In this document: positions 50,519 to 63,656 of the stretch, piece by piece
Position numbering within the stretch: position 1 is the stretch's first letter
How the letters are laid out: the number at the start of each line of letters is the position of its first letter
Assembly (NCBI GenBank): GCA_004022145.1
Contig: RCNU01000003.1
Origin: Paecilomyces variotii
Taxonomy: Eukaryota
DNA length: 64,000 bases
Reading direction: 5' to 3' (one strand)
Program-made: the position numbers and the translations under genes
Notes under the pieces: model-generated
Seen by the model: the letters and a program-made list of their open reading frames with translations, nothing else
The model's database searches: none
Told to the model about the DNA's origin: nothing

Positions 50519-51240
50519 ATGGTAGGCACTGCCCCTCATTCGAGCTATTAGCTGCTATGATCCCTTATGGCATCATATACCTGACTATGGAACAATAGGT
50601 TGACGCAGGCCTTCCAGCGGGCTGGGAAGTCCGTCACTCCAATTCCAAAAACCTGCCGTACTACTTCAATGCTTTGACGAAAGAGTCGCGCTGGGAACCC
50701 CCGGCCGACACCGACACTGAGAAGCTAAAAATCTACATGGCCACGCACCACAGCGCCCCTGCTGCCAACGCATACAGTGCTGGCCACGGAGAGGGCAAGA
50801 TACGAGCAAGCCATCTGCTCATCAAGCACAGAGACAGCAGACGGCCCAGTAGCTGGCGGGAGGCAGAGATTACAAGGTCCAAGGAGGAGGCATATGAGAT
50901 CCTGCGTGCCCATGAGAAGCGTATCCAGTCGGGCGAGGCTAGTCTGGGGGACATCGCTGTTTCCGAATCGGACTGCAGTAGTGCTAGGAAGAAGGGTGAC
51001 CTGTATGTTTATACTTTTTGCGAAAACTGCAACGAGCCAAAAGCTAATTCGAACCTAGCGGTTTCTTCGGACGAGGTGAGATGCAGAAAGAGTTTGAAGA
51101 TGCCGCATTTGCTCTTCAGCCGGGCCAGGTGAGCGGCATCGTGGAGACTGCATCTGGTCTTCACCTGATTGAGCGGTAGGCAGCTTCTTCGGAGTCCTGA
51201 TTCGCAGCTGCTAACGCAAAATCGTCACAGAGTTCAGTAG
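50519..51240 (+). CDS. pin1: Parvulin peptidyl-prolyl isomerase with WW domain (Pin1/Ess1/Ssp1); 3 introns
   Basis: [33 protein letters not shown] (WW domain); [38 protein letters not shown]. Confidence 0.95.
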
Positions 51241-53233: not shown

Positions 53234-55003
53234 CTAGTGGGCCACAGCAACGGTCTTGTTGTTCTTTAGTCGCTCCTTGATAATGTCCTTGCGCTCCTTG
53301 CGGAGCTTAAAAGCGTACGGAACGCCGAATCCGTGGTTGAAGACCTCCTTGATCTCCTCGAGAGTCAAGCCCGAGACTTCAGGGTAGAAGAAGATGATCA
53401 AGATCCAACCGACACCACAGATACCGGCGTAGAAGCCAAAGGCACCGGACGGCGTCCAGGCCTTCATCATCGAGAGGAACGTGCTGGAAATGATCACGTT
53501 GCTGCCCCAGGAAGAGCAAGCTATCCACATTGTTCCCATAGCGCGGACTTCCAGTGGGAAGAAGTCGGTGCTCATCCAGGCAATGTTCCCGACGGACACA
53601 CCGTAAAACACGACGAAGAAGATGATGAAGACGAGGACGGCAATAGCTGCTGGAGGGATCTTGGTTGATTCGACAGCCAGTGTATCGAGGTTGACTGGGA
53701 TGTAGAGGAATGCGATGGCAATTGCGATCAGTGAGGCGGACATAGCCCAGACAGTGCATAGCATGATACGACGGCGTCCGACACGGTCGACGATCACCAT
53801 GTTGACCCAAGTCATTATAAAGTTGACTCCAGCGACTACAATTCCCACTGCGACGGGGTTATTGAACCCGACCAGCCCGAACAATGTTCCAGAGTAGTAC
53901 ATCAAGCTGTTGAAACCGGACAGCTGAGAGATGACCATCAGGCCGGTGGCACTGAGCAGGGCGCGGAGGTTGGCTGGGTTGGTGTGCATCTGCTTGATCT
54001 TAGACCACCGGCTTTCACCTTCATTCACCTCCTTGGCTTCATCACAGGCGATCATGATTGAGGTCACCTTGCTAGCAACCTGCTCGTCGGTGGCGCCCTT
54101 GTAGATCTTCTGGAGCACCACCCTGGCCTGGTCTACCTTGCCATGGTAGATGAGATGACGAGGTGATTCCGGACAGAACGGCAGCAGAACCGCAAGCGTA
54201 ATAGCAGGGACAGCTGCTAGGCCCACCATATATCTCCAGCCATTAGGCACATTGGCAAAGGCTGCCCCAATGGCATAGGAGACCACCTGACCTCCTGTGA
54301 TAGACATATTGTTCAGTCCGATAAGACGGCCTCGCACCTTGGTCGGAGCGATCTCTGCGATGTAGAGGGGCACGACCATGGCTGCGGAACCGACACCGAA
54401 TCCGATCACAAGACGTCCCACGGACATCTGCGCGATGGTGAACGATGCAGCTTGCAAAACGGCACCAATGGTGAACAGACCACAGCCGATATAGATTGCC
54501 ACCTTGCGGCCGTACTATACACTGTCTTAGCCATGCGATCAATAATTCGGGTTGTATATGATTTAACATACCCTGTCTGCCGTGAGGCCGGCGATAATGG
54601 CTCCCACAAAAGCACCTCCTGAGCATAGTGAGGTGATCAACTCCTTTTCGCTGCTAGACACAGGCCGGTTGTTGAGATCGTTACCCAGATACACGAGGAC
54701 GGCAGATATAATTCCAGTATCATATCCAAACAATGACCCAGCAATAGACGCTGTTAGAGCCACCAGCCAGACGAACTTGCTTGTTGGTAGGGAGTCGATA
54801 GAAGTATCGTCGGACTCCCATGCACTGTGTTCGATATCGCCGTCAACCTTGTCCGCATGGACGACGTCGGGCTTGTCGAGGCTCATTCTGTCTGCTGGAT
54901 ACGAATGTATCTTGCCTGTAATGGGTCGAGCGTGTTCGATATGCCGGTACTCTTCGCGCTTGTCATCTTTACTCTGCGTCTGCTGCTCATTTTGAATTGC
55001 CAT
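53234..55003 (-). CDS. Sugar-porter family MFS transporter, myo-inositol transporter-like; 1 intron
   Basis: LFGYDTGIISAVLV, DR|YGRK, PLYIAEIAPTKVRG, PESPR, VDRVGRRR, FFPLEVRA and PEVSGLTLEEI. Confidence 0.85.
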
Positions 55004-55298
55004 GGTGGAATATATCACGTGGCGGTGACGACGTATAATGGATATAGAAACAGTAAGAATCAAAGATCCCTCATAAATGTATTATTGGAAAAAGCAATCC
55101 TATCATTCAGGTAGATAAGTGTTTAATGAGATGAGCAGTGGGCAGATCTGGCAGGTAGCTCTTGGTGTCGCCGACATGAACGGCAGGACACATGGTGCGT
55201 AGCACCGTATAAATAATACTTCGGTAGGGAGACCAGACGACGACGAGTATGGACGTGACATGATCATTGGACACGGAGAGACTAGATGGTGGCTTTTT

Positions 55299-55808
55299 GC
55301 GGGGGATAAACGGTGTCTGGAGAGAAAGCTGGGGTTGTGGAGCGGACTTCCTGACTTGGGAGTATGATTCGACTGGGAATGCCTACTTTTGCTTGCTGGG
55401 AACTTTCCTTTCTTTGTCTTGGGCTGGCTTTCTTGGGATGGGATTCCCCAGAGTAACTGGCCCGGAGACTCTGCGCCATTTTCCCCGAATCATACCCTGT
55501 GCTGTAGGTACTGTACGGTAGTACTTACTATCCACCATGGATTGTCTTGTAGACACTCCAGACTGTCGTACGTTCATACTGTCTGTGTAGAGCAGGAATG
55601 TGTATCAACGTCGACTCAATGCCAATCCTCTTGAATTCCATGTCGTCATAATTTTCTTCTAGTGTATTTTTCCCCGCAAAAAGCCGCGATGGTGTGGAGC
55701 ATTCATTATTGTAGGAGAAAAAAATGCGGGGGGAACTAACGAAGAGGAGTAAAGTCAAGACATCTTCCCCAACCATACCGTTTCTCCCAATACCCGCGTC
55801 AACTGGAG
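55299..55808. promoter_or_regulatory. Cluster of SYGGRG (CreA-type) sites in the divergent transporter/regulator promoter
   Basis: Matches at 55299, 55317, 55329, 55337, 55672 (reverse), 55694, 55726 and 55803. Confidence 0.4.
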
Positions 55809-56111
55809 AAAGTGTCGGCTAACCGGTCACCTCAACCGAGGACATCATTGGTGTGTCGCCCGATCCCAGTCAAACTGCAGCGAATTATCTCCTCTTCTAT
55901 GGAAATTGTCAGCCCGAGCAGAAATACCCTGGGCAGTCCCAATTGCCGACCTCATCCAGCGCCACAGTGGACTGGAGGCACATTTAGGCAACTTGTCGCC
56001 GTGTTTTCGCTCGATCGATCGAGGACGATGATCACGATAAGTCTATAGGGCTTATACCCTTTCTGTCGCTGCGCCGCGTCAATATCGATGGCTGAGTCTC
56101 GCCCGGGGAAG

Positions 56112-58408
56112 ATGTCGGCGGAAACTCCACGACCGCGACGAGGGCAATTCGACTCTCTACTGCCTTGCAATAATTGCAGATAAGTTATTGGATCCATCCG
56201 ATTGCCTGGAGGACCGTGAATATTGACTGGCTGCCCACACAGAGAAGCATGTGAAATGTAGGTATTATGCCACGAAAGATCATGGACCATTGATGGACAA
56301 CCAGAGAAATCCTGACCAGCGGAACAGGTCACTACGATTCAGATGGCCAATGTCAACGGTGTAAGCGTGAAGGCGAAGAGTGTGTGCGCGAACGAACCAG
56401 GATCCGATTCCGTCATGGTTCTCGTGGCAGCTTCCATACCACCTTCGCCGAAGACCAGCCCTGGGTGGGCACGGGAGGTAATGCTTGTAATCCATGCCGT
56501 TTGTTTGTATCCGATGGCCGCAAGTATAGGCGCTTAATGCATCAGTGAATAGGGATATTCCAGTTTGTCAATGAGACGGCTGGGGTTGTAGCAAGTTACT
56601 TGCAACAAGAGGGCCCCGATAGAGAATCAGATGCCGTGGTGGAAGACGAGCCATGGGGTGATCACAATGTCCGGTTATTGACAGGACAGACACCGGCAAG
56701 CGGTGGCACCAAGAAGCAGCCTGAGTCCTCTGCGTTGGTAACCTGTGCGAGAAATGTACCAGGTGCATCTACGCCAAGACGTTCGTTCTCTGGCAGCATC
56801 TCCTGCGAGCCATCGCATGGGAGGAACGAGATCGATAGGGAGCAACCGACAGGCAGAGGCATGAGTGGTCATGCTCAAGAGCCAGCTTCCACACCATTAT
56901 CATCATCGTCGTCGTCGCAGGCCTTCCCTCTTCCGCGCTACCGCCCCAGGGTCCCGTCATATTCGGCCCCTCGAACACCCTCTGATTATCCTTCTGTGTC
57001 TGATTTCTCCAGCCCAGGATCAGCGTCTGCGTACCAGATTTTCCAGCAGGCTGTCCTTCAAGATCCTACTACAGACCCTTTCTGGGACGACCTAGTGAAA
57101 CGACCCGCCAGAGAAACGTTCCACGATGGCCACGGCCGCCTGCAGGCAGTACTTCTTCGTTATTATGCAGAAGAGATTGCCGACCGGTTCGACCTCTGCG
57201 ATCCTGAACGCCATTTTGCTCGGGTGGTCCCTCAGCGAGCGCGCTCCTGTCCGCCTCTGTTAAACGCGATCTTTACCACATCAGCCCGCCATCTCACACG
57301 GCTCCCAAGGCACCGTCATGCAGCAGGGGCAGTGGAGTGGAGAGGCAGCCTTCTTCCTGATCTGACTGAGGAAGTAGCCGTGTATTATCATAATGAATGC
57401 ATCCGAGATCTGTTGAGATTGAGTGTTGACCCGGAACAGATTCACGATGAGAACCTTCTAGCTGCGGCGACCATCCTCCGGACGGACGAAGAGATGGATT
57501 CTCCGGTGCGGGATGGCGACGGTGACCAGGAGGTGTTTCTGCAGATGTTGAACATTTTCATCAACGCACAAGTTCCAGCTGTGACAGCGACTTCTCAGCC
57601 GCGACCTGGTTACCTTGAGCAGCAGATCAACAACAACACCGCGAGTGGCATGCAGGCTTTTGAGGGGATGGGCCATGCTCACCCTGCCCAGGATCTTCAC
57701 GTCCAAGGCCTGCGGCAAGCTGTCATCCGGATTGCCCTCCGCCAGGAGCTCTTCACATCGTACATGAAGCACCGTCCGTTGAAGTTCCCTCCCTTCCATT
57801 ATGAACCTTTTCGTGGTTTCTCCCCAGCTGACGACACCATGTGGGCTCATCGTCTTGTGATTTTCTGTGCCGATGTGTTGCAGTATTGTTATGGAGCCAA
57901 CGACGCAGGGACACCTCATCACTCTGAGATACAGTGGCAGGAGCTAAAGCGCTACGGTGAAGAATTAAGACTGGCACTGCCAGAGTCCTTTGCGCCCATT
58001 TTCTATCGGCCCCCGAACATAGAGACGGAGGAGATCTTCCCAGAGATCTGGTACCTGCAAGATTGCCATGTCACGGGAATGATGCACGCAGAACTGGCAC
58101 GACTGTTACTGGCAGTATACAATCCCACCCGACCTCGATTGGGTCATGGATACGCCGCCAGCATGCGGGAGCTCACCTTCGAGCTTCAAAAGACCGTGTT
58201 GCGGCTCTGTGGGATTGCACTCAGTAACCGCCAGTTGCCGTCCGTGTTCATCGAGGCATTCATGGGCATTTCCACGTACGGGGAGTATTTTGAGGACCAA
58301 AGGGCACAAGCAGCATTACTTGGCGTTCTGGACGTGATGCACGAAGAGCATGCTTATCCCACCGCAAAGATCGTCCAGGCGTTGAAAGAGGCGTGGGGTT
58401 GGGTTTGA
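56112..58408 (+). CDS. Zn(II)2Cys6 transcription factor; exons 56112-56179, 56241-56257, 56328-56477 and 56553-58408
   Basis: The spliced N-terminus gives CNNC-REKHVK-C-HYDSDGQ-CQRC-KREGEE-C followed by IRFRHG. The C-terminal fungal TF domain has FDLCDPERHF, CPPLLNAI, ENLLAAATILR and FPEIWY. Confidence 0.82.
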
Positions 58409-59161
58409 GATTCAATGACTATTCAGCATGCAGGAAAAGGCACAATCTTTGCTTGCAGATCGAAAAGAAAAGAAAAGATGTCGAGTTATAGCGAGTCTAC
58501 TCTCTTTATTGAATCACGCAGCAAGTCAATTCCAGTTGCTAGGCTTTTTTATCTATCTTCCTGATGACAGCACGATAACTAGACACTCCAGACCCGTCCG
58601 GAAATCATTGCTGCCGCTATGGCCTGACTCGAGGAGGAACTGTAGCAGGAGTCCATAGGTGATCGGAAATTGTTTACCAGGATCCATCACATGGTCAGCC
58701 ACCAGCAGCAGTAAGGCTGTATCTTCCCCTCTTCCTCTCGTTGCTTAAGTTAGTATGTTATGTGTTGATGTCCCGCAAGGCCATCGGAGGCAGTTTCCCG
58801 GTTGCTGCCAAGACAGGCAAGTGCCGCCGCCCGACATTCCCCACGGGGCAACTCCGCGCGGAGTAACAGTGGGCCTATCGCCCGCCCCGGTTTTCCTCTT
58901 TGGGCCGCACGGCGATTGAGCTTCGAATTTCCTTTTCCGAATGTCAACAAATCGGGCCATTTGGTGTAGCACGAGAGATGGACGAGGTACGCGGAGATTG
59001 TAGGGGACGCTATATCTAGGTAATGGTCTCGCTGGTCTGAAAAGGGCTGGATTGTCATCGAAGTGCATTGTTGGCGGATCTCTCCCAAGTAAACGGTTCT
59101 TTGAAGACGTCGTTGCTGCTTGAAAATCTCAGGGAATTCCCACACTAACCACCACGTCGCC

Positions 59162-60402
59162 ATGTCTACCAAGCTCAAAGTCGCTATCGCTGGTTTGGGC
59201 CGCATGGGCTCCCGCCACGCGAACCACTTCTACTCCTACACTCCCCGCGCGGAAGTGGTAGCGGTCACGTCGCCCGTGCAGAATGAATTGGACTGGGCGA
59301 AGACCAATCTCGGAAATCCCCGAACATACCTCGACTTCGATGAGCTGCTGGAGAAGGAGAAGGATCTGCAGGCGATTGTCATCGCGTCGGCCACTTCCGT
59401 GCACGCAGAGCAGGCCATCAAGGCGATCAACAAGGGACTCCATGTTCTGTGCGAGAAGCCCCTGAGTACGAACATTGAAGAGGTATACTTGGATTTGATC
59501 TAACTGAAGATAATGTCCTATGGGTAGTGGTGATGAGAGGTAGTTATGCTAACGAAGAAACTCAATCGTACAGTCCCAGAAAGTGGTCGACGCCTACCAC
59601 GAATCGCTCAAGACTCGTCCCAACCAGAAGGTCATCTGCGGTTTCTCCCGTCGCTTCGACGCCTCCTACCGCGATGCCTTTGAGAAGCTCCAGTCCGGGC
59701 TGATCGGCCGTCCCAGCGTCTTCCGCTCCCAGACCTGCGACAAGCTGGACCCGTCCGGATTCTTTGTCGAATACGCCCAGTTCTCTGGTGGTATCTTCGT
59801 CGACTGCTCCATTCACGATATCGATCTGGCGCTCTGGTTCTTCGGTGAGGACTCAGTCGTCAAGTCTGTTACTGCCGTTGGTATCACTGCCGTGTCTCCT
59901 GAACTGAGGAAGTACAATGATCGCGACAATGCTCTTGGGATCGTGGAGTTTCACGATGGAAAGATTGCCCAGCTTTTCTGCAGCCGCATGATGGCTGCTG
60001 GCCAGGAGGACTGTGAGTCATTTTCCTATTGAATACTCCCTACTTTCAATCATATTTCAAACAGAGATATTAACATGATTTTCAATAGCCACCGAAATCA
60101 CCGGCACGGCTGGCAAACTCGCCGTCAACACTCAACCGGCGGCCAACCTGGTCAATATCTACGAACCCACCGGTATCCGTCGTGAGATCCCACCCCATTA
60201 CTACGGCCGCTTCCGCGACGCTTTCATCACCGAAGCCAACGAATTCACCGCCTCCTGCCTGGACAACACCCCGCCTCCCATGAAGCTCGAAGGCGCAGTG
60301 GCTGCCGTTCGAATTGGATGCGCTCTGCAGGAATCCCTGATTACTGGAAAGAAGATCGACTTTGATGAGAAAGGAAACCGGATCACTCTGGCGAATCTGT
60401 GA
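59162..60402 (+). CDS. Gfo/Idh/MocA oxidoreductase, myo-inositol 2-dehydrogenase-like; 2 introns
   Basis: GLGRMG Rossmann motif, HVLCEKP, GFSRRFD and SGGIFVDCSIHDID. Confidence 0.88.
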
Positions 60403-61354: not shown

Positions 61355-63656
61355 TTAAGTGAATGCGCTTTGGACCGATCCGTATCTGTTTATGAGGTCA
61401 GAATTCCAACATTCTGCTGGAATAAAATAAAAAGAAAGACAGAAAGAAAGAAAAGCTCAGACTCACCCTTGTGGGCATTGACTTCCCAATGCAACGCTTC
61501 CACTGCGCATGTAGCAGATTCGTGCTTCTTGACAGGCAGTGTTGGTGCAGTTGGGACTCTGTGTGCTGGATTTTCCCTGGTAGGTATTCTGTAGAGTGAC
61601 CAGACTGATATTCTTCGCCATAGCCTCTGTCACTTGGAACCAGAACGTTGCGTTGAGAGGCTCGTCGGCACCCCATGAGACAGCAGGTCCGTATGTTTCG
61701 CGTGTTGAATATTCCAGGCTGTAAGTCGGGCCTGTCCCGTTCAGTGATGAGAATGAAGACACATTGGAGACAAAGGTGTAGGCCTCGTATATGTTGAAGT
61801 CGCCCGTGTCCACTTCATACAGTCGGAATCCGCTGTTCAAGTTCGTCAGCGGTGTCACACTGGGTCCGATCCAGCCGGTGGTCAGAGCAGTGTCGGCACT
61901 TTGCACGGTTCCGTTATTAGCAAAGTAGATCATAAACTGGTCCTCATGGGTGTGGCCGAAGAAGATATTAGCAATCACGTGCGGCGAGTATCGGTCGACA
62001 ATCTGATAGAAGAGGTTTGTCGGGTTGGGGATCGGGTTGGTGCCGTCCCAGCCACTCAGGACGTGACCCATGATCCAGACGCGCTCACCGGCATCCTCTG
62101 CTTTCTGGAGTTCCTCGATTAGAAACGCCAGGATCCCCGAGTTGTCGGGGTTTTCAGCGTTGATGAAATTGAGATAATTGCTCGAATACCAGAAATCTAG
62201 CAGTGTGTCAGCTTTGTCCTCTTCTGACTTTCCCGCCCTATCACAAGATATGCGTTTTTAGTGAACTTACCAGTGTTAAGGGTGATAATGCGAAGACCAT
62301 AGTGGTTCTTGATTGAGTATGCACCGTAGTGCGTGGCAGCAGTACGGGCGGTCTCCGCATCAATCCATCCCTCATGCTGCCACAGTCCAGCAACGTGATC
62401 ATAATTCCAACTGAGCTCCGCTCCAACTGTGCCTCCCAATTTATGCGGAGCGTCCATATTGGCTGGGCTGGTGTCATGGTTTCCCAAGGCTGCGAAGACG
62501 GGCCCAGTGAGGTACAGCTTGAACATCTCAAAAACGCTAGTCTCGGTGTATTCGACGTATGCTTGCGAGAGCTCTGGCTCAGGGTCATGAGAGACCAGGT
62601 CTCCCGTATATAGGGTCCACCCCAGCGACTCTTGCCCCCTTCCCTTTCCAGTCCCAGTTAGAGGACCGACGGCCTGCAGAACCGCAAGCGCTAGATCGTA
62701 AGGACTATCGCACTTAAACTCGCCATAGGGGGATGCTGACAGGAGGACCTGGTCAGGCGATGCAGTGTTCGGGTTATTGGCCCGACAGCATAGACTGGAT
62801 GAGCAGTTGGCTTCAGCACCCACTGAATATCGTGCATCCAGGTGTAGGTCAGACATATGCAAAACTTTGACGCGCTCCCCGCTGGCCTTGGGGACGCGAG
62901 CCGTAGCATTGGCCGGCTTTGGTTTGGGGAAAAGATTCTCTGTGTTCAGAGGGCTCGTCGATGGACGACTGCAGTAGCTCGAGTTGATCGCATGGCAGAT
63001 GTACTCTCCATCGAGCCCAGTGACATTTGCGTAATACAGGACCTGGGTCCAGATTGCGCCAAAATTGGTCGCATTATACGACGACTGACACGATGAATTA
63101 GAGGCAAAGTGGAAGCTTTCACACAGCGATACCATGGCGCCGGGGACGAAAGATGGTGCATACCAGGCCGCTGGTTGGGCGGCAGCCAAAGCAGCCTGGC
63201 ATCTTTGACAACTACTCAGCGAGCTATTGGACTTGATCACTTCGGTCACATTAGCAATGGTTTCCCTGATAAGGTCCTTGGCTTGCGCATGGGATAGAGT
63301 CTTCCTTGCTGGGGGATATGCCACGGGATCCGAATTGACGGTGGGAAAGTTGGTGGGGTCTGTTAATTCGAATGGGTAGACCGTGTGCAATACCGGGTCC
63401 GATATTATCGGCTGCGGTTCCTGAGTTGGAGATGCGGGGAGAATATAGTATGAGCTATATTTATCCGGCACATCAGTATTAACAAGTTAATACACAAACA
63501 TGAGACCATAGCCGGTGGAAATACATACGAGAACGCGGTAGTTGGAAAGCCTTCAGGCGCCACGAAGGACGACTGCCCGGGGATGGATGAAGCGGCTGCA
63601 GTGGGTGAAGGCACGAATCCCACAGCCAAGAGGCCGCTGAGAAGAGGGAGCTGCAT
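61355..63656 (-). CDS. Secreted acid sphingomyelinase-like phosphoesterase (saposin-like domain plus calcineurin-like metallophosphoesterase); 3 introns
   Basis: Signal peptide MQLPLLSGLLAVGF; metallophosphoesterase motifs HMSDLHLD, TGDLVSHD, LGNHD, MGHV, FFGHTHED and GPSVTP. Confidence 0.9.

Follow-up and report, generated by a model that had tools for sequence, protein, structure and literature searches.

A probable U2-type AT-AC intron beside a 17-nucleotide microexon in the zinc-cluster domain of an ARCA-like regulator of Paecilomyces variotii

The DNA analyzed here, referred to as the window, is a stretch of 64,000 nucleotides (nt) of the Paecilomyces variotii contig RCNU01000003.1 (assembly GCA_004022145.1), and it carries toward its end a gene for an ARCA-like regulator whose Zn2Cys6 DNA-binding domain appears to be split by an intron with AT and AC ends, a 17-nt microexon, and an ordinary GT-AG intron. 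Exon 1, with in-frame ATG codons at 56112 and 56088, reads ..TGCAG up to 56179 and then meets ATAAGT at 56180, with a TAA stop codon in frame at 56181–56183. A preliminary description of the region, made from the sequence alone, had held that no usable GT precedes this stop, and the single GT between 56112 and 56181 does indeed lie at 56114–56115. When the 61-nt AT..AC intron, whose 3' terminus is CCCACAC, is removed along with the second intron, the product reads CNNC-REKHVK-C-HYDSDGQ-C-QR-C-KREGEE-C, i.e., an exact C-x2-C-x6-C-x7-C-x2-C-x6-C spacing. The coordinates given in the preliminary description check out, and this arrangement stands as it was proposed. Joining the donor at 56179 to the nearby AG acceptors, with exon 2 then starting at 56243 or 56245, loses the frame. 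The junction itself is ambiguous by one base, with an A on both flanks: 56179^56241 (AT..AC) and 56180^56242 (TA..CA) yield the identical mRNA, and while the borders used here have AT and AC ends, the sequence would also allow the one-base shift to TA..CA. The borders of intron 3 are fixed, with no one-base shift in either direction.

The coding sequence spliced by these coordinates from the ATG at 56088 is identical over 704 of 704 amino acids to a public protein, P0126 (RWQ96561.1 / XP_028486206.1), which is listed for P. variotii under the source name "Zn(2)-C6 fungal-type domain-containing protein". The product of the last exon shows 97% identity to a P. variotii protein and 79% to a P. 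lecythidis protein. P0126 fits the general six-cysteine pattern C-x2-C-x6-C-x5-12-C-x2-C-x6-8-C and scores 23.6 bits against the Pfam domain PF00172 (Zn_clus; cut-off 21), to which the canonically spliced models P0121 and P0122 have no Pfam match. All three proteins contain PF11951 (Fungal_trans_2), located in P0126 at residues 287–509 with 25.9 bits (cut-off 21). The REKHVK segment has its counterparts in RDKHLK of the Rasamsonia orthologue P0025 and RSKHLR of the Aspergillus orthologue P0005. The nearest relatives bear the source names ARCA or arca-like in Aspergillus, Penicillium, and Chaetothyriales, and ARCA-like regulators have the same pair of PF11951 and PF00172 as the window's protein. 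ArcA of Aspergillus nidulans controls arginine catabolism.

The 90% cluster to which the protein belongs has 19 members, 15 of which are listed and 10 of those named. Cys1 and Cys2 are missing from nine of the 10 named P. variotii models, and P0126 alone has the exact splice. The expectation in the preliminary description that gene predictors would miss the domain is thus borne out by the nine but not by P0126. These nine models join upstream open reading frames (ORFs) at 55537 or 55899 through canonical sites to AG acceptors at 56242 or 56244. The N-termini of the other strains' models were considered as alternative exons and rejected, as they map to these same two upstream ORFs and are artefacts of prediction. 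The 49-codon upstream ORF beginning at 55899, wrongly taken as the first coding exon in the strain models of the P0122 group, might affect translation of the regulator. The genome of the P. variotii strain to which P0126 belongs was annotated with the Joint Genome Institute (JGI) pipeline with the aid of Trinity-assembled Illumina RNA (PMC6300479), and RNA-aided annotation would explain the non-canonical junction in the P0126 model. The zinc-cluster domain is real, is missed by most predictors, and is already present in one public model.

Table 1. Features of the regulator gene in the window, with positions counted from its first letter and the basis for each assignment.
Feature	Position	Strand	Basis
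5' leader, covered by RNA contig	55786..56087	+	X14 record 4; one contig is no proof of a single transcript
Upstream ORF of 49 codons in the 5' leader	55899-56048	+	ORF peptide at 55899
Exon 1, coding part: Cys1 and Cys2 (CNNC), first two bases of an Arg codon	56088..56179	+	ATG at 56088 as in P0126
Intron 1, 61 nt, AT..AC, U2-type (type II), 5' site ATAAGT, 3' end CAC	56180..56240	+	Sequence, X14 bubble, homologues
Probable branch site ATTGAC, branch A at 56226, 14 nt from the 3' end	56222..56227	+	Predicted; sole NTRAY motif in the intron
Microexon, 17 nt: third base of Arg, EKHVK, first base of Cys3	56241..56257	+	Sequence, X14 record 7
Intron 2, 70 nt, GT..AG (GTAGGT..CTGAC..AACAG)	56258..56327	+	Sequence; apparently fully removed in X14
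Exon 3, 150 nt: last two bases of Cys3 through Cys6, linker	56328..56477	+	X14, spliced coding sequence
Intron 3, 75 nt, GT..AG	56478..56552	+	X14 joint; about half retained
Last exon with Fungal_trans_2 (PF11951); stop codon at 58406-58408	56553..58408	+	Domain search, spliced coding sequence

For evidence from RNA, four sequencing runs (X12, X13, X14, and X17) were compared as contigs over 55950–56800. Run X14 shares its organism code with the DNA sets X1 and X2 and is RNA-like, with no depth over 56269–56326 and a GT..AG joint across intron 3. Its record 4, 395 nt in length and extending back to about 55786, ends at 56180 and then forks into records 5 and 6. Record 5 (120 nt, depth 33.9) runs unbroken over 56151–56259 and continues with 11 letters that equal exon 3 from 56330. 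Record 6 (59 nt, depth 18.2) aligns to 56151–56179, then to a second stretch up to 56259, and finishes with 11 loose letters. The second stretch of record 6 is deduced: of only seven X14 records, two carry 11 loose letters behind 56259, the depths 33.9 and 18.2 add up to that at 56258 (52.1), and the lengths 29, 19, and 11 sum to 59. Record 7 opens with the exact 17 letters of the microexon ahead of 56328. Across intron 2, the zero depth is accompanied by the loose end CACTACGATTC behind 56259, and there is no contig in which this intron is retained. The joint listing for X14 has no entry for introns 1 and 2, presumably because the middle piece of 17–19 nt is too short.

A simulation at k=31 yielded a 59-nt unitig from 56151 with 11 letters behind 56259 for the doubly spliced path and 120 nt from 56151 for the path retaining intron 1. 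The acceptors at 56243 and 56245 gave 56 or 57 nt, unlike the sizes in X14. Among the three acceptors simulated, only 56179^56241 together with the unspliced form predicts contigs of 59 and 120 nt, and the junction is therefore strongly, if indirectly, supported; the earlier dismissal of the nearby AG acceptors also stands, on contig size as well as on frame. The 59-nt contig might instead be an artefact of reverse transcription or assembly, a suspicion invited by a junction deduced from the short contigs of one run. Against this, template switching would need more than the single base (A) that the two sides of the junction share, the frame is exactly restored at the joint, and homologues have the same borders conserved. 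We judge such an origin very improbable.

Another default suspicion for any non-canonical site is an error of sequencing or assembly, by which the true intron would be GT..AG with the A at 56180 and the C at 56240 miscalled. Nothing positive speaks for it. No letter other than A at 56180 or C at 56240 occurs in the contigs of X12, X13, and X14 (X12 and X13 possibly deriving from the same source as the window). If 56180 were a G and the intron ended with the AG at 56241–56242, the frame would be broken, and the same AT..AC borders recur in four homologous loci, which leaves this explanation close to refuted. Two observations concern run X13 itself: one of its contigs is four bases short at 56258–56261, the start of intron 2 (GTAG then GTAT), such that the shorter allele still starts with GT, and its contigs break between 56192 and 56217, where a second variant may lie inside intron 1.

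Contig depth is a rough measure of level, and X14 is the single RNA run over the site. By this measure, the arm that keeps intron 1 (33.9, against 18.2 for the spliced arm) makes up about 65% of the summed k-mer depth. For intron 3, the joint 56475>56551, described as "skips 75, GT..AG (cut +2)", has a depth of 25.6 against 28.6 unspliced, i.e., about 53% retained.

To place the intron ends in the context of the gene family, we scanned metagenome contigs with the family alignment, which gave 47 loci (with 140 pattern-matching stretches). In 16 of the loci, the DNA-binding domain could be scored for its exon structure; the others lacked upstream sequence or were not inspected by eye. As in the window, an AT..AC intron follows the second base of the Arg codon behind CxxC, ahead of a 17-nt microexon with a GT donor, in L005, L006, L009, and L039, meaning that the borders are conserved at the same codon in four of the 16 scorable loci and that the comparison of intron ends in homologues bears out the earlier proposal. 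A canonical intron lying 2 nt downstream, in phase 1 and with a 15-nt microexon, was found in L010 (GC-AG) and in L011, L012, L013, and L014 (GT-AG). The domain has no intron in L001–L004, and in L021, L022, and L035 a GT-AG intron lies inside the Cys1 codon, with a 29-nt microexon. L009 and L039 are near-identical, leaving three AT-AC lineages besides the window, and L013 and L014 are alike in the domain region. No AT-AG or GT-AC intermediate was seen at the intron 1 site in the scored loci. The intron of L010 (176–226; GCAAGA..TTTTAG), in the same place as the GT-AG intron of its close relative L011, is a second non-canonical variant at this site.

The proteins of the AT-AC homologues are 40–46% identical to the window's, and by eye, not by alignment, the AT-AC introns are alike only in their ends and branch motif. 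The nearest named relatives of the L006 protein belong to Chaetothyriales (53% identity; other matches 87–99%). Its microexon starts with AT, and the use of AC is therefore independent of an adjacent AG. A stop codon (TAA or TGA) directly follows exon 1 in four of the five AT-AC loci, the exception being L005. The spliced coding sequence equals a public protein, the motif matches that of orthologues, and AT..AC recurs in four loci; the arrangement is therefore beyond chance.

AT and AC ends are the classic mark of U12-type introns, and intron 1 could accordingly be thought an intron of the minor spliceosome or a relic of one. The 5' site ATAAGT of intron 1 has no mismatch to the type II consensus but four of eight to the U12 site ATATCCTT, and no U12 branch box was found in the intron, the best match having four mismatches in eight. 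The same holds for the homologues: mismatches to /ATAAGT number zero in the window, L009, and L039, one in L005, and two in L006, while all five AT-AC introns depart from the U12 5' site at 3–4 of eight positions and from the branch box TCCTTAAC by 3–4 mismatches. Each has one NTRAY branch motif instead, which is TTGAC in the window, with the A 14 nt from the 3' end, and CTAAC or CTGAT in the four homologues, with the branch A 11 nt from the end. There was no sign of a special RNA fold around the AT-AC intron, with z-scores of 0.05 (window), 0.70 (L005), 0.66 (L006), and 0.90 (L009).

The literature points the same way. /ATATCCTT is given as the U12 5' consensus and a strong /ATAAGT consensus as that of metazoan type II introns (PMC5029451), and no convincing minor introns, minor small nuclear RNAs (snRNAs), or U12 splicing are reported for Ascomycota (PMC2846911, PMC10639083), in line with the preliminary description. 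We therefore give a U12-type origin next to no probability. Because of its ATAAGT site, the lack of U12 motifs, and the lack of reported U12 splicing in Ascomycota, intron 1 is read as a U2-type (type II) AT-AC intron, an assignment that is well supported, and the motifs and the papers on Ascomycota suggest that it would be removed by the major (U1/U2/U4/U5/U6) spliceosome. As such, the proposal of a natural U2-type AT-AC intron is upheld by the junction in the X14 contigs, by the ATAAGT site without U12 motifs, and by conservation in homologues. The rule on which it leaned, namely that mutation of the first base from G to A is suppressed when the last base mutates from G to C, is documented, at lower efficiency, in human as well as in yeast (PMC1557818).

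A tree of the C-terminal domain was built from 70 rows, namely the window, 41 loci, and 28 named or representative proteins picked from 120 listed; L039 and L043–L046 (best match below 250 residues) and L047 (which missed the 1e-5 tblastn cut-off) were left out. All scored AT-AC rows fall into one 30-row clade (Shimodaira–Hasegawa-like approximate likelihood ratio test [SH-aLRT] 99), in which L009 and L006 branch off first. The group that follows unites L005 with Rhinocladiella and two Aspergillus paralogues, the window lies deep within the Eurotiales, and the Lithohypha group, which has no intron, is likewise nested in the clade. Its sister clade consists of the canonical phase-1 loci with Exophiala and Fonsecaea (SH-aLRT 99). 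The four intron states need three changes over the 16 scored rows of the tree, and each state therefore arose once. Most simply, the AT-AC state would be ancestral to the 30-row clade, and it may predate the duplications from which the several family members of Aspergillus arose. Judged by its recurrence at the same codon position in distant homologues, intron 1 is old.

An alternative that takes the AT-AC intron as never productively removed is that the DNA-binding domain has decayed and that the working protein starts downstream, without a zinc cluster. The motif is absent from 98 of 136 family proteins and half present in 13, many of which are plain ORF calls on contigs, and the unspliced arm is the deeper one in X14. 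Nevertheless, the spliced form accounts for about a third of the depth, the six cysteines and their spacing are intact and match orthologues, and the frame of the microexon is conserved across lineages less than 50% identical. Decay of the domain is accordingly very unlikely.

Several points weigh against a genuine, productively spliced AT-AC intron and should be kept in view. The junction in X14 record 6 was deduced from lengths, depths, and loose ends, not from its letters, and X14 is possibly the data behind the P0126 model, such that the two are perhaps not independent. The contigs of X12 and X13 are all unspliced and DNA-like, and those of X17 start at 56371, beyond the junction. About two thirds of the depth over intron 1 comes from the unspliced form, as would also be expected of an intron that is inefficient or under regulation. 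The comparison of homologues covers 16 of 47 metagenome loci, without genomic DNA of the named orthologues (Aspergillus, Rasamsonia, P. lecythidis). One of the AT-AC loci, L005 (186–240), permits a weak canonical model with the donor GTCTCT and the acceptor GAG, both 4 nt downstream, in which the cysteine spacing is kept. Finally, the tree comes from an IQ-TREE quick search and was midpoint-rooted for drawing only, and the direction from canonical to AT-AC is thus assumed.

Even with these points taken into account, we consider it likely that the gene encodes an ARCA-like Zn2Cys6 regulator whose DNA-binding domain is split by a genuine U2-dependent type II AT-AC intron, a 17-nt microexon, and a GT-AG intron. 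In the proposed mechanism, U1 would pair with CAG|AUAAGU, which matches the canonical site except at +1, and the branch would form at the TTGAC that lies 14 nt before the 3' end. AC would then be used in the second step, with the first-base A pairing non-canonically with the last-base C. Splicing would lead to the complete six-cysteine domain, and retention of intron 1 would end the frame at the TAA at 56181.

As for the origin of this intron, the mRNA across the junction reads ..TGC AGA GAG.. in the AT-AC and canonical classes alike, and only the cuts differ, being ..AGAG|GTAAG...AG|AG... in the canonical class and ..AG|ATAAG...AC|AGAG... in the AT-AC class. The preliminary description had seen a GTAAGT..CAG intron with both terminal bases changed. 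In that form, this is not supported: the old-looking CAG is still present at 56240–56242 and the canonical homologues splice 2 nt downstream on both sides, which points to a 2-nt shift and not to two substitutions. The would-be canonical acceptor CACAG is kept in the window at 56238–56242 and would yield the 15-nt microexon of the sister clade. A possible course of events is that a G|GTAAGT donor lost 2 nt and became |ATAAGT and that the 3' cut then moved from ..ACAG| to ..AC|AG, restoring the frame, and such a loss with a shift of the cut would be possible because the mRNA reads AGAGAG across the junction. A reversion to GT-AG needs coordinated changes at both ends, and persistence can therefore be explained without selection; the intron probably persists for this reason and not for regulation.

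Type II AT-AC introns are known from human SCN4A and SCN5A and from TAF2 of human and fly (PMC1557818), and like the intron in the window, they have AT..AC ends on a U2-type /ATAAGT site, no U12 boxes, and borders conserved in homologous genes. The first-base A/last-base C rule has been demonstrated by yeast and human mutants (PMC1557818, PMC5029451). Unlike those cases, the intron described here occurs in a filamentous ascomycete and, at a length of 61 nt, stands beside a 17-nt microexon, the sister clade of the gene is canonical 2 nt away, and dependence on the major spliceosome is deduced from motifs and literature. Among fungi, AT-AC introns account for 0.03% of introns in SnowyOwl models of Aspergillus niger and two other fungi (PMC4084796), one AT-AC case is found among Sanger-checked non-canonical sites of Fusarium graminearum (PMC3577648), and yeast RPL30 has a nested AT-AC intron that is a 1–2% side product with an atypical 5' site (PMC5029451). 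Further AT-AC junctions in ascomycetes appear in bulk counts (PMC7072748) and in fungal xylanase genes (PMC1557818). These fungal records are tallies or isolated examples, with no comparison across a gene family, whereas in the window, the AT-AC junction is the only productive splice and is conserved across lineages.

For the microexon, the closest precedent is Xlr2 of Trichoderma virens (PMC11121469), in which a 20-nt microexon, against 17 nt in the window, lies inside the Zn2Cys6 domain. The Xlr2 microexon was missed by the JGI consensus model, as the window's was by nearly all the named models, and in both genes, intron 1 is partly retained and a stop follows exon 1 if it is unspliced. In contrast to the window, Xlr2 has canonical introns on either side of a microexon that holds two cysteines, while that of the window lies between Cys2 and Cys3. 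The likeness is one of arrangement, and glucose control is documented for Xlr2.

The regulator gene lies between a divergent sugar transporter gene at 53237–55081 (minus strand; Sugar_tr, 296.7 bits) and a GFO/IDH/MocA oxidoreductase gene at 59105–60029 (plus strand). From the sequence, the three look like a small catabolic cluster; inositol as its substrate is a guess prompted by the neighboring genes. Also nearby and ordinary-looking are a Pin1-like gene with WW and rotamase domains at 50599–51129 (plus strand) and a gene for a calcineurin-like metallophosphoesterase at 62200–63486 (minus strand).

The preliminary description had further supposed that the AT-AC intron may throttle production of the DNA-binding form. 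In a fuller version of this idea, a slow AT-AC intron and its microexon would be kept by selection to set the level of DNA-binding-competent protein, and the retained form would give a short peptide, a decoy or, from a downstream start, an isoform without the domain. Such a gate would have been conserved since before the family paralogues split within Eurotiomycetes, and completion of the second step with A first and C last would set the amount. The high retention of intron 1 in X14 and the stop directly behind exon 1 in most AT-AC loci fit the idea, as do the lower splicing efficiency of introns with such ends (PMC1557818), the Xlr2 precedent, in which the microexon is included only without glucose and intron 1 is retained (PMC11121469), and the adjoining sugar transporter and oxidoreductase genes. 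However, canonical intron 3 is retained to a like degree, so that throttling by intron 1 is not borne out, the single RNA run at the site represents one condition with contig depth as a poor measure of level, and the long persistence of the intron can be explained by the two coordinated changes that a reversion needs. We therefore regard regulation through this intron as doubtful. If it were true, the Xlr2 microexon switch would have a non-canonical counterpart here, with a possible tie to the sugar transporter and dehydrogenase genes on either side.

No literature on an AT-AC intron in the ARCA-like regulator family or in Paecilomyces was found in a search that did not extend to supplements. 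AT-AC junctions in ascomycetes at very low frequency are already known, and the splice described here is in the public model P0126. What we did not find in print, and what appears to be new, is that AT-AC intron and microexon are conserved together on the scale of the family and that a distance of 2 nt relates this intron to the canonical sister intron. A genuine AT-AC intron of the kind we favor would give an RNA-supported, U2-type example in a genetically tractable filamentous ascomycete expected to have no minor spliceosome, with a canonical sister clade 2 nt away. It would thereby serve as a natural experiment, both for the first-base/last-base rule that applies to the second catalytic step and for the origin and fixation of such introns.

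The finding also bears on how these regulators are recognized. Cys1 and Cys2 are also lost in several named models inspected from Aspergillus and Chaetothyriales (five of 50 further proteins). In P0140, P0159, P0161, P0165, and P0167 (Fonsecaea, Exophiala, and Aspergillus), odd first residues precede a KHLKC-like motif, or the microexon is skipped, a pattern that would be expected if the same AT-AC intron defeats gene predictors there. Models from P. variotii, Aspergillus, and Chaetothyriales thus lose the first two cysteines, and surveys of transcription factors may therefore count or classify ARCA-like regulators wrongly.

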